From Veleropilina oligotropha (lineage: Eukaryota), in NCBI GenBank assembly GCA_048128005.1, contig JBEUKZ010000008.1, positions 124,001 to 188,000 of the forward strand: a stretch of 64,000 bases of DNA, given 5' to 3'. Made by a program: the position numbers and the translations under genes. The stretch's first letter is position 1. Every line of letters begins with the position of its first letter. Below, piece after piece: positions 15,867 through 23,758 of the stretch. The notes below the pieces were generated by a model. That model saw nothing but the letters and a program-made list of their open reading frames with translations. It had not been told where the DNA came from and ran no database searches.

Positions 15867-16210
15867 CTATGTGACTCCACGCACCCTTGCAGCCGGTAGA
15901 TAACATTGAGAAGTAATGCCCGTTTTACCACGACATAATGACGGCTCAGCGCATTCAATGCAAACAACAGTATTTGGGTCGGGCCCACAGTCATTCTCTC
16001 CATCGGTAATAAAGTAGTGGCACGAGGGTGCCCGAACTGGAGGTGGGTCCCGTAGCAAGTTGCTCCGCAAGTGGTCGTACCTTCTATTGTACAGGGGGTG
16101 GTTCCGGTACCAGGCCCACGAGTGTTCGAGAATTAATGCGTCGTCGTGCGGTGGGGGGTGGCACCCGCGGCAAAGCACACCACGGCAATACATAGTAGCA
16201 TGGATTTCAT
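15867..16210 (-). pseudogene. Small secreted Cys-rich viral protein (frameshift near 16155)
   Basis: MKSMLLCIAVVCFAA signal-like N-terminus and six-Cys C-terminus; homolog at 60516-60859. Confidence 0.65.
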
Positions 16211-16930
16211 GGCTGTCCAGATATCACTGTCGAGTTCGAGCTTTAATACGGGGGGAGGGGGAGGGGGGAAGTCCCCCAGCCCACGCTCGACTTGAATGGT
16301 TAATCGCCAACTCCGAGTTTTTTCATTAATTCTGCGCGTCCCTCTACGTCCACGCTCATTTAGCTCGCTTTGGGTCTGTGAAACTGCGGTGTGAGCCTTT
16401 AGACTTTTGAGGCGAACCGTGGCCTTCATTGTCCGATATTTGGCCATCTCGTCTGTGACGAGTTTGAACTCATCATCAGACATCTCCCCGTCCGATAAGG
16501 CCTTTGAGACGTGGTCGCTGATAGTGTTCAGCTTGCTTTCGGCCAGTGCTCGAATCTCGTTGTGCTTCTTAGCCTTCACTTGGAGGCGGCGGCTAATGTA
16601 TTTCCCACCCATACATGCGAGCCCACACCCCAACGCCGCTAATTCCAGCACCAGTACCACAGGTGCCGCAACAATTGTGGACAGTAGACCAATGCCGGCG
16701 CTACCCATACCAAGGGTGGCAACGACCAGGGCCGAGTCGATCCCGTCAACGACATTAACGCCTCTTCGGTACTTCTTGTACAGGGCAGCCCGTGTGTCCC
16801 TCTCTCGTTCTAGCTGTCCCTGAAGCTCATTCACTTTCTGTAGTCGGAAAGACTGTGCCTCCGGCAGTTCCGAAAGCACATCGCCACCAAGTTGTGGGTA
16901 CAGCGTTGGCACTGATGGTGTGTTGTCCAT
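16133..16930 (-). CDS. Viral coiled-coil protein with hydrophobic hairpin (resembles the adintovirus 'GasderminX'-type ORF); tail beyond ~16320 probably frameshift read-through
   Basis: FRLQKVNELQGQLERERDTR..LYKKYRR, then a long Gly/Ala-rich hydrophobic stretch, then KAKKHNEI...KLNTISDHVSKALSDG. Family name is from recollection only. Confidence 0.7.
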   Translation of the reverse strand: MDNTPSVPTLYPQLGGDVLSELPEAQSFRLQKVNELQGQLERERDTRAALYKKYRRGVNVVDGIDSALVVATLGMGSAGIGLLSTIVAAPVVLVLELAALGCGLACMGGKYISRRLQVKAKKHNEIRALAESKLNTISDHVSKALSDGEMSDDEFKLVTDEMAKYRTMKATVRLKSLKAHTAVSQTQSELNERGRRGTRRINEKTRSWRLTIQVERGLGDFPPPPPPVLKLELDSDIWTAMKSMLLCIAVVCFAAGATPHRTTTH

Positions 16931-17277
16931 TATTCGTGGCTGTATTGTTCAGCCTGTTGATTCCAAATGTCTACCGTAACGTTCAAATAAAAGGTGCCCA
17001 CCCAGGGGGCCTTGATGGCAAAGGCGAGGGTCAACTTGTCCGAATCCAGGCCAAGTCTATTTATGGAACACGCTTTGGGAGCCCCCCCGGCCGGCTGGAC
17101 CGGCGTCATGTGGATCATTAGAAGGGCTGGGTTCAACCCAAACCGACCTCCAGCGTTTGGGATCATAAACTCCCTCCTCGCCAGCCCCTTCTTGGGCGCT
17201 TCTCCACAACCAAGAACAAAGTGCCACTGGGTCGCTGAAGGCTCATCTGCAAGCAGGGGGGTCCCATAGATGCTCAT
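16930..17277 (-). CDS. Viral hypothetical protein, 115 aa
   Basis: Conserved in copy 2 (61434-61880). Start overlaps the penton stop (ATGA) and stop overlaps the next start (TAATG). Confidence 0.75.
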   Translation of the reverse strand: MSIYGTPLLADEPSATQWHFVLGCGEAPKKGLARREFMIPNAGGRFGLNPALLMIHMTPVQPAGGAPKACSINRLGLDSDKLTLAFAIKAPWVGTFYLNVTVDIWNQQAEQYSHE

Positions 17278-17980
17278 CGTATCTCGAGGACTGCGGATAT
17301 AGGCATACCGTGATTGTCGAGCGGGTTACCATCTGAGTCGGTGACATAAACCTTCAATTCCGTGAGAACCCCGGCCTGTAGTCGCCGAAATTCCGGATAG
17401 CTATGATAGTGGGCAGCTTCACACCGAACATCTGCGACGTTATAGGGACCACCGCGAGAATATTGCTCGGGGCGCCGTCCTTCGCATTGTATGTTGTACT
17501 GAGCTGCTCCAGATAAATGTGTAGGGTCGCTGCGATGGCAAACCCGACGGGCTTGTTCCTGTCATAAGTCCCAGGGCGTAGCCATTGCAGCGACCCGACA
17601 GGCTTGTTCCCATCATAAGTCATAAGTAGCCACGCTGAAAGGCTGAAGCCGAGGAGCTTCCGTATATCGTCGCTTATCGCGAGTCGAGTCCCCTCTGGGA
17701 CAACGAGTTGCGCGAGTCCGGTAGCACGGCTTACCTCGAGCCGCATGTTAGCTAGGGACCTCTTCATCGTCTTGGCGAGGGAATCGAAGCTATAGAACCC
17801 TGGTGCCACCTCTACCGTGGTATCGGGGGTCTTAAAGAAGGCTCCAGCATGCACGTTATGCCAGCCGACCCAGTAGTCGAGCGAGCGCAGGCCGACGCAT
17901 AGCTTGCCTTCCCGGTTATCTATCGGTTGCAGGAGGTCAACCGCGGTCCCCTCTTGAACACTCGTTACTGTGTGGAACAT
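17274..17980 (-). pseudogene. Minor capsid protein (penton, single jelly roll), frameshifted near 17415
   Basis: LLQPID..LCVGLRSL, VAPGFYS..L, SNILAVVP...FG and C-terminal LKVYVTDSDGNPLD. Intact in copy 2. Confidence 0.8.
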
Positions 17981-17984
17981 AGCT

Positions 17985-21871: not shown

Positions 21872-22475
21872 ACGGTTTCCGCACACCAAGGACCCCCACT
21901 CCGCAATCATCTGTGCCCAGACGGGCTGTGGGAAGACGGTTTTCATGCTTGAACTGCTGAAAGGGGAGTATCGAGGTGTGTTCCAACATGTTGTAATTCT
22001 CTGCCCCACGATCAAGTACAACAAAGCATACCAGTCCTGTCCGTGGATCTGGACCGATCCGGAGGTGTATTTGATCCCCCCCGGTGAGCGACTCCATGAC
22101 TGGTTGCGGGGGTTCTACCGGCTGTTCCAGGGGGAACCGACCCTGTACATCGTCGATGACTGCGCCGCCAGCAAAGATCTTGCCAAGAGGAGGGATATGT
22201 TGACTGCGTTGGCCTTCAGCGGCAGGCATGCCGAGCAGAGTGTATGGGTGGTGACGCAAAAATATAACTCGGTCTTGAAGGAGCTCCTCGAACAAACCCG
22301 CTGGGTCGTTCTCTTCCACTGCAAAGACCGAAACAGCTTTGAAGACTGTCTCCGCGAGAATGACGTAATCCCGTCGCAGGATGAGAGAACCGCGGTGCGC
22401 CGGCTGTTGGCCGAGACCAGACACGCTAAGCTCCTGTTGAAAACTGATCAGCCCGTTGCTTATAGTGTGCTCTAG
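21843..22475 (+). CDS. A32/FtsK-like DNA packaging ATPase
   Basis: Walker A (A)QTGCGKT, Walker B LYIVDD, arginine finger SGRH, sensor VVTQ. Confidence 0.92.
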   Translation: MDALSQHCTRRFPHTKDPHSAIICAQTGCGKTVFMLELLKGEYRGVFQHVVILCPTIKYNKAYQSCPWIWTDPEVYLIPPGERLHDWLRGFYRLFQGEPTLYIVDDCAASKDLAKRRDMLTALAFSGRHAEQSVWVVTQKYNSVLKELLEQTRWVVLFHCKDRNSFEDCLRENDVIPSQDERTAVRRLLAETRHAKLLLKTDQPVAYSVL

Positions 22476-22516
22476 CATCTACTTAGCTAGCTAGGCATCT
22501 ACTTAGCTAGCTAGGC

Positions 22517-22771
22517 ATGTCGGACGCGGTATATATAGCGTTTGCTTGCAGCCAGAGCCTTATATTGCTGCTACTCGTAACCTTGTGGTACTGGCTTTAC
22601 GGCTATATTAGCCGGCGAGGCGATGTTGGAAACGCTTCAGGATGGACAGCCTTCTCGAGCAACTCATGGAGGACGAACAAGAAACGACCGTCACCGGCCA
22701 CCGCTCGACTCCCCCGGGCTGCTTGCAGCACGAGGAACCTGCCAGTAACAGTGGAGTCGCAAGTTCCGTAG
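22517..22771 (+). CDS. Small predicted membrane protein (true 3' end uncertain)
   Basis: N-terminal hydrophobic helix LILLLLVTLWYWLYGYI. Confidence 0.5.
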   Translation: MSDAVYIAFACSQSLILLLLVTLWYWLYGYISRRGDVGNASGWTAFSSNSWRTNKKRPSPATARLPRAACSTRNLPVTVESQVP

Positions 22772-23331
22772 GAACGGTAAAGAAACGGGAGAGGCTTGCA
22801 GCCTTAGCCGTTGGAGGGGCCCACAGATACTTGGGGCGAAACCTCACGATTGACCGGATCGACGATATGACCGACGAAGAGGTTGACAAGCACCACGCGA
22901 GGTACGAAGCCAAGCTCGGTGCCGAGATGACGAAAACCCTGGGAACTGCAGCTATACACCTCTACGCGGGGGCGGCTGGGATGTTCTTGCCTATCCCACC
23001 AGAAAACCAGCTACGACTGATCGCCGACCTGGAGGCCGACCCGTTCATCTCACATGCGCTGTGCACTGCAAGCAGTGAGCTGTATCACCAGTACGGCATG
23101 TACCTGGCGCCGCTGACCGCCGCGTTGACCACGGTTAAACACTGCCGCCGATTTGGACATGTTTGCCCGCCTAAAATACCAGAGCGAGGACTAGATCAAG
23201 ATGACAACGCTGGAAATGAACCAAACTTCGGCGACCCAGCCGATAGAGACGATAGAGAGGGTGACCCAGCCGATAGAGAGGGTGACCCAGCCGATAGAGA
23301 GGGTGACCTCTTCTTCGGGGAAGGATCCTAA
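22642..23331 (+). CDS. Viral hypothetical protein, 229 aa
   Basis: ATG-started ORF in the colinear gene block; acidic DPADREG repeats at the C-terminus. Confidence 0.7.
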   Translation: MDSLLEQLMEDEQETTVTGHRSTPPGCLQHEEPASNSGVASSVGTVKKRERLAALAVGGAHRYLGRNLTIDRIDDMTDEEVDKHHARYEAKLGAEMTKTLGTAAIHLYAGAAGMFLPIPPENQLRLIADLEADPFISHALCTASSELYHQYGMYLAPLTAALTTVKHCRRFGHVCPPKIPERGLDQDDNAGNEPNFGDPADRDDREGDPADREGDPADREGDLFFGEGS

Positions 23332-23758
23332 GAAGGTGGCTGCGGGTTGGGCCGGTGCTGCTGCTCGGAAAGCCAAACAGGAGAGGCTACTTGCTGATAT
23401 TAGAAAACTCAAAGAAGACACTCGGCAAGTATCTGTCAGCACATTGGATGATACCTCACAGGTATCGATGGCGGAGCCACACAGTACCCCGGCCGCGGTG
23501 ACCGCGGTCGAAAAGGATGTTCGCGCCGTTGGGGGGGGCGCAGTGTCAGATACACGGAAATCGGACCCATTGAATTGGGCCCTCTTCGCTGCAGGCGGGG
23601 TTGCGCTGTTATTTGTTGTCTGGAAACGCAGCAGTGGTCCATCCACACCACATCAACAGCCACCAGCACCGGCGAGGCAGCCCAGGGCTCTTCGGGCACC
23701 AGTATGCAAAAGAGATGCGTTTCGCAGGGACTGCAAAAGAGGGTCAAAGGTCGACTGA
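23201..23758 (+). CDS. Viral protein with KDPKKVAAG basic motif and a TM helix; tail after ~23687 likely chimeric
   Basis: KDPKKVAAG..GAAARKAKQ and WALFAAGGVALLFVVW. Confidence 0.65.
   Translation: MTTLEMNQTSATQPIETIERVTQPIERVTQPIERVTSSSGKDPKKVAAGWAGAAARKAKQERLLADIRKLKEDTRQVSVSTLDDTSQVSMAEPHSTPAAVTAVEKDVRAVGGGAVSDTRKSDPLNWALFAAGGVALLFVVWKRSSGPSTPHQQPPAPARQPRALRAPVCKRDAFRRDCKRGSKVD

Follow-up and report, generated by a model that had tools for sequence, protein, structure and literature searches.

Seven hydrophobic proteins interleaved with the capsid genes of a Maverick/Polinton-type element in Veleropilina oligotropha, and their possible role in budding

What a set of predicted membrane proteins is doing in an element that encodes a capsid is the question raised by a stretch of 64,000 nucleotides from the genome of Veleropilina oligotropha (assembly GCA_048128005.1, contig JBEUKZ010000008.1, positions 124,001 to 188,000 of the forward strand), here called the window, to which all coordinates below refer unless another locus is named. 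A GC-rich island in the window is a decayed endogenous Maverick/Polinton-type element (provirus), for which the original prediction had noted hydrophobic segments in five genes, called at 16930(-), 17985(+), 20554(-), 22517(+) and 23201(+), and had proposed that either the virion has a membrane or the element carries a dedicated module for membrane penetration or egress. In its intact form the element has seven genes for hydrophobic proteins (A, D, E, FG, H, K and J), interleaved with the genes for the capsid, a candidate penton, a protein in fibre position and the packaging ATPase (Table 1). It is suggested below, tentatively, that this module serves to wrap the capsid in host membrane and to release it by budding.

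A conserved set of hydrophobic proteins

Hydrophobicity was assessed on the Kyte-Doolittle scale over spans of 19 residues with a threshold of 1.6, and by this measure hydrophobic segments are indeed present in the five genes originally named, that is, in A, E, FG and H and also in D, whose anchor lies behind an in-frame stop. The gene boundaries as first called have to be redrawn, because the copy in the window is a broken, pseudogenised provirus: the open reading frames (ORFs) at 22517 and 22642 form one gene (FG), those at 20554 and 19449 form another (E), H had been cut at its C-terminus, and when intact the element has not five but seven such genes.

Conservation was followed in 81 related loci from metagenomes and one contig of a metagenome-assembled genome, in which the major capsid protein (MCP) is 37-78% identical. 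Gene order in these loci is the same, namely A(-), fibre-position gene(-), C(-), D(+), E(-), MCP(+), ATPase(+), FG(+), H(+), K(+), J(+), a small ORF(+), integrase(+) and replication gene(-). Where the flank was long enough, E was present in 26 of 27 loci, D in 20 of 20, C in 18 of 18, FG in 20 of 24 and J in 14 of 14, while A was found in 3 of 3 under a strict flank rule and in 15 loci overall, and K in 16. The positions of the transmembrane (TM) segments recur as well, with the hairpin of A seen in 8/8 relatives, the three hydrophobic stretches of E in 17/17, the N-terminal TM of FG in 18/18, and the N- and C-terminal hydrophobic segments of J in 14/15 and 9/15, respectively. Homologs are numerous (309 for A, at least 1,138 for E and 1,676 clusters at 50% identity for D), and median identity among relatives is 44% for A, 42% for D, 41% for E, 44% for FG and 56% for J, as against 55% for the MCP and 34% for C.

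Ratios of nonsynonymous to synonymous substitution (dN/dS) were estimated by the Nei-Gojobori method from 13-21 genomic copies, with six frames tested (three forward frames for K). The values obtained were 0.14 for A, 0.18 for D, 0.36 for E, 0.21 for FG, 0.48 for H, 0.18 for J and 0.08 for K, alongside 0.14 for the MCP, 0.08 for the ATPase, 0.39 for B and 0.27 for C, and in every gene the annotated frame gave the lowest value among those tested. The membrane genes are real genes under purifying selection in the annotated frame only. The original prediction had itself named failing TM predictions, or lack of these genes among relatives, as the outcome that would speak against it; that objection falls away, because the TM segments are conserved and the genes, which belong to the core of the related loci, are syntenic and under purifying selection.

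No family in Pfam or PHROGs was matched by A, C, D, FG, H or J, nor by the small ORF preceding the integrase. In several relatives (L042:8755-9138, L047:7357-7764, L056:9114-9407) this ORF, of 97-135 aa, is placed between J and the integrase. A further candidate, a 630-aa ORF (19424-21316, minus strand) that extends gene E antisense over the first half of the MCP gene, was rejected as a gene because there is no sign of separate selection on it: although several copies leave it open, antisense frames across the MCP region have dN/dS values of 0.31-2.8 compared with 0.14 for the MCP frame, and in relatives gene E starts beside the MCP start. The ORF is probably a by-product of codon usage.

Motifs, folds and predicted topology of the membrane proteins

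Gene A combines features that are of particular interest for egress. In the window it has an N-terminal PSVP (PSAP in other copies) and LYPQL, followed by a helical segment, a KKYRR patch, a TM hairpin at residues 66-110 (maximum 2.35) and a helical C-terminal domain. P(T/S)AP and YPxL are late-domain types that bind TSG101 and ALIX. When these motifs were counted in the 120 best homologs, with expected values taken from shuffles, YPx(1-3)L was found within the first 45 residues in 107 proteins (6.6 expected), P[ST]AP in 68 (0.9 expected) and both together in 62, while from residue 46 to the end the counts were 1 and 0. The forms taken are mainly PTAP (44) and PSAP (24), YPEL (48) and YPVL (14), with LYPxL in 73 of the 120, and the same homologs have a polybasic patch ahead of the first TM in 92 cases. 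YPxL is present in 10/10 genomic copies and in 7/11 related loci, P[ST]AP in 7/10 and 5/11, and lysine or arginine flanks the hairpin on both sides in 7 of 8 relatives. A third hydrophobic segment in the window ORF of A (residues 236-259) is a frameshift artefact, and intact copies do not have this tail. A profile search of PDB sequences gave no solved relative of A, hmmscan of 27 homologs against Pfam gave no family at E <= 1 consistently across members and no NS3 family at that cut-off, and the ESM Atlas yielded unnamed clusters only, mostly from Mollusca.

Gene E is predicted (AlphaFold2, pLDDT 68.5) to consist of a small N-terminal domain, a long helical hairpin (residues 193-288), a TM helix, a proline-rich linker, an amphipathic helix and a hydrophobic hairpin, with hydrophobic stretches in the window at residues 332-358 (maximum 2.40) and in the ORF at 19243-19449 (maximum 2.02). 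The latter ORF is separated from the rest of the gene in this copy; in 18 of the other 20 copies the sequence is longer by about 40 nucleotides at 19443, and intact ones read through. Two proteins had originally been described as joining a coiled coil to a hydrophobic hairpin, a description that suits E, where the 3.5-residue periodicity was attained by just 19 of 1000 shuffles, and suits A poorly, its heptad periodicity being weak (matched by 71-115 of 1000 shuffles); in J and H it is not significant. Conservation of E is highest from the TM helix onward, including the C-terminal amphipathic helix and the Gly/Ala-rich hairpin. At the other end of the protein, NPx[FY] occurs in the first 60 residues of 80 of 120 homologs (0.77 expected) and nowhere else in them, mostly as [FI]DNP[VA]FEP and in the window as FENPAF; FxNPxY is the LDL (low-density lipoprotein) receptor's coated-pit signal (PMC2133019). 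The model of E had no match at E <= 0.001 (best BFVD E-value 0.038, with several tape-measure proteins at noise level), the ESM Atlas gave no match, and the one PHROG matched, of no known function, was found at E = 6.7e-5.

In gene D the ORF as first called (384 aa) has no hydrophobic segment (maximum 1.19), and the same frame past the stop encodes a C-terminal anchor ending at 19271. In 32 of 35 homologs, with identities as low as 28%, this anchor (Kyte-Doolittle mean of at least 1.5 over 17 residues) is placed 0-11 residues short of the C-terminus, and at the N-terminus the proteins are polar; a polar N-terminus and a C-terminal TM are the hallmarks of a tail-anchored protein. With a C-terminal TM and no signal peptide, D is likely to be tail-anchored, and J may be too, although its class is less clear because it also has an N-terminal hydrophobic segment. 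The structure predicted with confidence for D from an intact copy (L014:3728-5023; pLDDT 86.7, pTM 0.81) begins with a domain of ~360 residues, mostly helical but containing a few strands, to which a disordered linker joins a helix at the end. Foldseek searches of PDB and BFVD with this model gave no match at E <= 0.001, a wide VIA search gave a best Z of 3.6, and profile searches of PDB sequences gave no match for either D or E. Over residues 244-333 of the D model three adenovirus capsid chains (8roq_N, 6qi5_N and 9lr9_K) scored Z 3.0-3.4, which is the level of noise and could serve as no more than a lead towards a role in vertex cement; chain N of 8roq and 6qi5 is presumably protein IIIa. 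The likeness to pore-forming toxins or fusogens that had been looked for was thus not found, the fold searches with D and E being without significant match.

The remaining proteins are smaller. FG is a single ORF in 7 of the 20 other copies and has an N-terminal signal-anchor TM (residues 2-32 in the window, maximum 2.21) followed by a predicted cytosolic domain; in 18 of 18 relatives 2-7 lysines or arginines directly follow this TM and none precede it. H has a variable N-terminus, a conserved basic motif (KDPKKVAAG...RKAKQE), a TM at residues 123-142 counted from 23201 (maximum 1.73) and a proline-rich tail. It ends in [DN]PF[YH]M[ED] in 7 of 13 complete relatives and in NPF in 5 of the 8 genomic copies listed, the C-terminus of other copies reading NPF[HD]MR; DPF and NPF motifs are linked to endocytic adaptors. 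Gene K, absent from the window because of a deletion of 1.6 kb, encodes 79-88 aa (for example L011:9516-9755 and L043:7292-7537) with two hydrophobic or amphipathic helices and is the most constrained among the small genes. Gene J encodes 141-145 aa, with an N-terminal hydrophobic segment, a helical middle and a C-terminal anchor; where this anchor passes the threshold in relatives, it stops 2-8 residues short of the protein's end.

The positive-inside rule was used to assign topology, and the charges flanking the TM segments of FG and A suggest by this rule that their bulk is cytosolic; the bulk of A, D, E and FG is predicted to face the cytosol, and the termini with late-domain and sorting motifs would be cytosolic too.

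Budding, an internal membrane or other uses of a membrane

It is plausible that these features belong to one mechanism, in which the module would wrap the capsid in host membrane and drive non-lytic budding that depends on the ESCRT machinery of endosomal sorting. This is a tentative reading, and nonetheless the one that we favour. A would act like orbivirus NS3, with a cytosolic N-terminus recruiting TSG101 and ALIX, the assembled capsid would be kept at the membrane by the C-terminal domain of A or by those domains of D, E and FG that face the cytosol, and ESCRT-III would pinch off the wrapped particle, which would bud away from the cytosol. The wrap could be either a lasting envelope or a transient quasi-envelope. 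The fibre-type gene of relatives speaks for the capsid being infectious in its naked state as well, with its vertices exposed in at least one form, and exposed vertices suggest that the wrap may be transient, as in orbiviruses. Of the two options originally proposed, it is therefore the egress side that gains from the late-domain motifs and the NS3-like design of A, whereas a membrane on the virion is plausible by way of wrapping and goes further than these features establish.

The comparison with orbiviruses is worth considering in some detail. NS3 of bluetongue virus is reported to consist, in the same order as A, of late domains, a coiled coil, polybasic motifs close to the membrane, two TMs and a motif at the C-terminus that binds the capsid, and to bridge a non-enveloped capsid to ESCRT for non-lytic budding (PMC6949946). 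A resembles NS3/NS3A in its N-terminal late domains, its helical or coiled segment, the membrane-proximal polybasic patch, the two-TM hairpin and the presence of a C-terminal domain. With ~210 aa, A is also similar in size to NS3. They differ in that A pairs P(T/S)AP with YPxL whereas NS3 pairs it with PPxY, and in that A belongs to a double-stranded DNA element with a presumed double-jelly-roll capsid whereas NS3 belongs to a double-stranded RNA virus. The lack of any sequence similarity between A and NS3 weighs against the budding scheme, as do several other points. Short linear motifs may be kept for reasons other than the predicted binding to TSG101, ALIX and phosphotyrosine-binding (PTB) adaptors. 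The hydrophobicity of K is no more than moderate (a maximum of 1.65 over 17 residues, and charges inside the segment), the penton role of C is itself putative, a lasting envelope would have no obvious entry device since there is no recognisable fusogen or sizeable ectodomain, and a fibre gene is more in keeping with a naked than with an enveloped capsid.

That about half of a genome of ~14 genes encodes hydrophobic proteins, inside the morphogenetic block, would also agree with a lipid membrane inside the virion, beneath the double-jelly-roll shell, such as tectiviruses (PRD1) and nucleocytoviruses have, in which case D, E, FG and J would act as minor capsid or anchor proteins fixed in that membrane, some of them forming a conduit for DNA packaging, and only A would serve release. 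PRD1 and the Nucleocytoviricota likewise have many small membrane proteins among their structural genes, an A32/FtsK-type packaging ATPase and vertex fibres. The packaging ATPase of the element is of A32 type, its fibre-type gene implies exposed vertices, the predicted bulk of the proteins is on the cytosolic face, which is the side where such capsids assemble, and no adenain-type protease, or any other peptidase family, was met among the ORFs scanned (window, L042, L045, L046 and L062), of which small unassigned ones remain. We nevertheless regard an internal membrane as unlikely. Budding in which ESCRT late domains take part proceeds away from the cytosol, and scission of this type has the topology of wrapping a capsid, not lining it, which is why egress is ranked above a PRD1-like membrane. 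The endocytic-type signals on E and H suggest traffic at the plasma membrane and endosome over a factory membrane, and the small relatives with solved capsids (virophage and adenovirus) are without a membrane. To our knowledge, proteins with P(T/S)AP or YPxL are not known to serve membrane acquisition in PRD1 or the Nucleocytoviricota, no homology of the element's membrane proteins to theirs was detected, and likeness to known anchor and tape-measure proteins is not above noise.

The module may instead have nothing to do with particles and remodel or exploit host membranes through viroporins, receptor down-regulation, immune evasion or replication compartments, in the manner of adenovirus E3. 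Adenoviruses, although non-enveloped, encode several integral membrane proteins, and FxNPxF, [DN]PF and late domains are also used by modulators of trafficking. Accessory genes are, however, usually lineage-specific, whereas the synteny seen here is fixed down to 37-55% MCP identity, the membrane genes are more conserved than the candidate penton, D alone accounts for 1676 representative clusters, and the genes are interleaved with those for the capsid instead of lying in an accessory region, all of which makes such a purely non-structural role improbable, to much the same degree as an internal membrane. Still further down in our estimation, and very unlikely, is the idea that the proteins are membrane-active components of the capsid core (the 'Macc' class of Buck and colleagues, resembling adenovirus VI and X), held inside a non-enveloped capsid and breaching the endosome at entry. 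Adintoviruses and 'meldviruses' have been reported to encode membrane-active proteins, including the PLA2X, GasderminX and cupiennin classes (PMC8502044) and the 'Macc' proteins, some with holin-like hydrophobic domains (10.1101/2024.03.25.586562), holin- and SLATT-like proteins have been described in this group (10.64898/2026.10.13.758929; PMC12220804), and the part of E that is most conserved would suit such a task. Yet without a bilayer it is hard to see how seven proteins with TM helices of full length, including two with a tail anchor, could be kept soluble; motifs for late-domain function and endocytic sorting serve no purpose inside a capsid core; and no likeness to lipase, gasdermin or protein VI was found, with 0 of 27 A homologs matching a gasdermin family of Pfam by hmmscan, whereas GasderminX was originally assigned by profile-profile searches.

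Budding through ESCRT, the reading favoured here, also has a bolder form that we consider doubtful, in which the double-jelly-roll virions would be truly enveloped, wrapped by ESCRT budding via the NS3-like late-domain protein, tied to the membrane by tail-anchored linkers, and able to enter by means of the amphipathic helix and Gly/Ala-rich hairpin of E in place of a known fusogen. Enveloped particles have been proposed for nematode Mavericks, which encode a gB-like fusogen, MFUS-1 (10.1101/2022.07.12.499685). MFUS-1 is a type I glycoprotein of 866 aa that has a signal peptide and an ectodomain of class III, whereas none of the seven proteins combines a signal peptide with a large ectodomain, and neither of the models (D and E) matched a viral fusogen fold at E <= 0.001.

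The element, its copies and what the module may mean

The features of the element are collected in Table 1.

Table 1. Features of the Maverick/Polinton-type element and of a second copy in the window
Feature	Coordinates	Strand	Remarks
Left terminal inverted repeat	14259..14421		paired arms, ends read directly
44-nt tandem repeat, G+A-rich	15019..15580		12.8 copies, 96% matches; between left repeat and gene A
Gene A, NS3-like small membrane protein	16133..16930	-	conserved part 16334-16930; tail frameshifted; ~210 aa when intact
Gene B, fibre position	16930..17277	-	115 aa; dN/dS 0.39
Gene C, candidate penton or minor capsid protein	17277..17980	-	245 aa when intact; frameshift near 17420
Gene D, likely tail-anchored	17985..19274	+	431 aa; in-frame stop at 19137-19139 (codon 385) before anchor
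Gene E	19243..20554	-	~420 aa when intact; split by ~40-nt deletion at ~19443 into 20554(-) and a 68-aa ORF at 19449(-)
MCP	20567..21871	+	434 aa when intact; in-frame stops at codons 16 and 426
A32-type packaging ATPase	21843..22475	+	intact; Pox_A32 E = 2.9e-8, 33.9 bits (cut-off 22.8)
Gene FG	22517..23331	+	single gene of 242-263 aa when intact; frameshift after codon 31 splits it into 22517(+) and 22642(+)
Gene H	23159..23758	+	C-terminus lost to deletion at 23687
rve-type integrase, C-terminal remnant	23583..24152	+	N-terminal part gone from this copy
Deletion junction	23686..23688		~1.6 kb lost; in other copies gene K, gene J and N-terminal part of integrase
Replication protein, SF1 helicase core and C-terminal HNH-like part	24142..27944	-	three ORFs in this copy; AAA_19/AAA_30
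Right terminal inverted repeat	28066..28230		pairs with left arm 14259..14421
Second copy of element, runs off window	60954..64000		A frameshifted; B, C and D intact; start of E after

The GC content of the island is 0.54-0.58, compared with 0.33-0.40 in its surroundings. The terminal inverted repeats (~165 nt) are 93-98% complementary, with arms 14259-14385 and 28104-28230 at 98% and an adjoining 43-nt pair, and GATTA/GATTAA just outside them is a probable short target-site duplication. The tandem repeat at the left end, a block with a GC content of 0.67, gives rise to several long spurious ORFs. In the MCP family 15 of 18 members match Capsid_N of Pfam at E <= 0.01 (best 8e-5), every one under the gathering score, and among more than 3,100 homologs one, from a sea slug, is named 'Major capsid protein' by UniRef; a profile search of PDB sequences gave no match to the MCP, and a scan of viral contigs gave no relative. 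The ATPase of the related locus L042 scores 43.8 bits against Pox_A32 and its integrase (L042:9026-10048) 35.9 bits against rve (cut-off 32.6), and the integrase genes of other genomic copies encode 343-355 aa.

With terminal inverted repeats, an MCP that matches Capsid_N below the gathering score, an A32 ATPase and an rve integrase, the element resembles group 2 Maverick-Polintons and adintoviruses (Polintoviricetes), in which the replication module is reported to be either a protein-primed family B DNA polymerase (pPolB) or a superfamily 1 (SF1) helicase protein (10.64898/2026.06.19.733378). It fits the group 2 type, in which the helicase protein often replaces pPolB: no pPolB was met in the window lineage, which has the SF1-helicase replication protein, while the relative L046, with the same structural and membrane module, matches DNA_pol_B_2 at E = 6e-19. 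One capsid and membrane module is thus seen beside different replication modules, pPolB in L046 (8982-12617) and the SF1-helicase protein in L042 (9967-13596) and the window, and the right arms of the genomic copies L012/L013 (L032, L033), with integrase and replication genes, cannot be aligned with that of the window, which points to module swapping.

In relatives the fibre-position gene encodes 175-425 aa, and two of these have tail-fibre matches, one strong (L046:941-2218; Phage_T7_tail at E = 1e-11 and PHROG tail-fibre families at E = 1e-25) and one weaker (L042:677-1435); judging by these lengths, the fibre seems to have been shortened in the window lineage. Gene C, for which a profile search of PDB sequences also gave no match, is a candidate penton or minor capsid protein by its position and size.

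The decay of the window copy was judged against 20 other genomic copies, 10 of them including right arms, which with the window make 21 sequences. Single ORFs spanning the whole reference protein were found in 10 of the 21 for A, 12 for B, 9 for C, 5 for D, 2 for E, 10 for the MCP, 6 for FG, 5 for H, 7 for J, 15 for K and 21 for the ATPase, the last count being biased because copies were picked by their ATPase match. Genes A and C of the window are frameshifted near their 3' ends, and in 4 of the 10 right-arm copies the alignment to the window picks up again after ~1.6 kb of extra sequence at 23687. In the second copy in the window gene C lies at 61880-62617 (minus strand) and gene D, with its full 431 aa, at 62619-63914 (plus strand). 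Elsewhere in the window there are a LINE-type ORF with endonuclease and reverse transcriptase (49792-52683, minus strand), a reverse-transcriptase fragment that abuts the right terminal inverted repeat (28533-29426, minus strand), a Harbinger-type DDE transposase (57483-58670, plus strand) and, in a block of GC content 0.48 upstream of the element, an open frame of 1418 codons (1622-5875, plus strand) with no Pfam match at E <= 0.001.

The element is very abundant in this genome of 1.4 Gb. A first look gave 11,396 candidates for the ATPase, of which 150 were scored, all at 90-100% identity and 18 with one stop, and 12,182 for gene D, of which 97 were scored, 70 being full length without a stop. 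As an upper bound, 11-12 thousand first-look matches at no more than 14 kb each would amount to up to about a tenth of the genome. The names and taxa of homologs point to a mollusc as the most likely host, and a massive accumulation of Maverick-Polintons has been reported in bivalve genomes (10.1101/2025.04.19.649669). A conserved set of integral membrane proteins or a late-domain protein is not described in PMC11161782, PMC11131425 or the PLV framework preprint 10.64898/2026.06.19.733378, in each of which the word 'membrane' occurs 0 times, and literature searches on Polintons in connection with ESCRT, an internal membrane, an envelope or fusogen, or the capsid gave no account of the module, though supplements of preprints may list its families as unnamed orthogroups.

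Polintons, or Mavericks, are among the commonest DNA virus-like elements of animals, and no particle of them has been seen. The seven-gene module makes the question of how they leave and enter cells testable, with late domains on a two-TM protein, an LDL-receptor-type signal and two putative tail-anchored proteins as points of attack. It also bears on the evolution of the PRD1-adenovirus lineage, in which the presence or absence of a membrane is a major divide, and should the virions prove to be truly enveloped, a Polinton lineage that is very abundant and belongs to molluscs and further marine invertebrates would have an envelope and an entry device of a new kind. Finally, the module might shed light on how such elements gain access to the germ line and expand until they make up a sizeable part of the genome.

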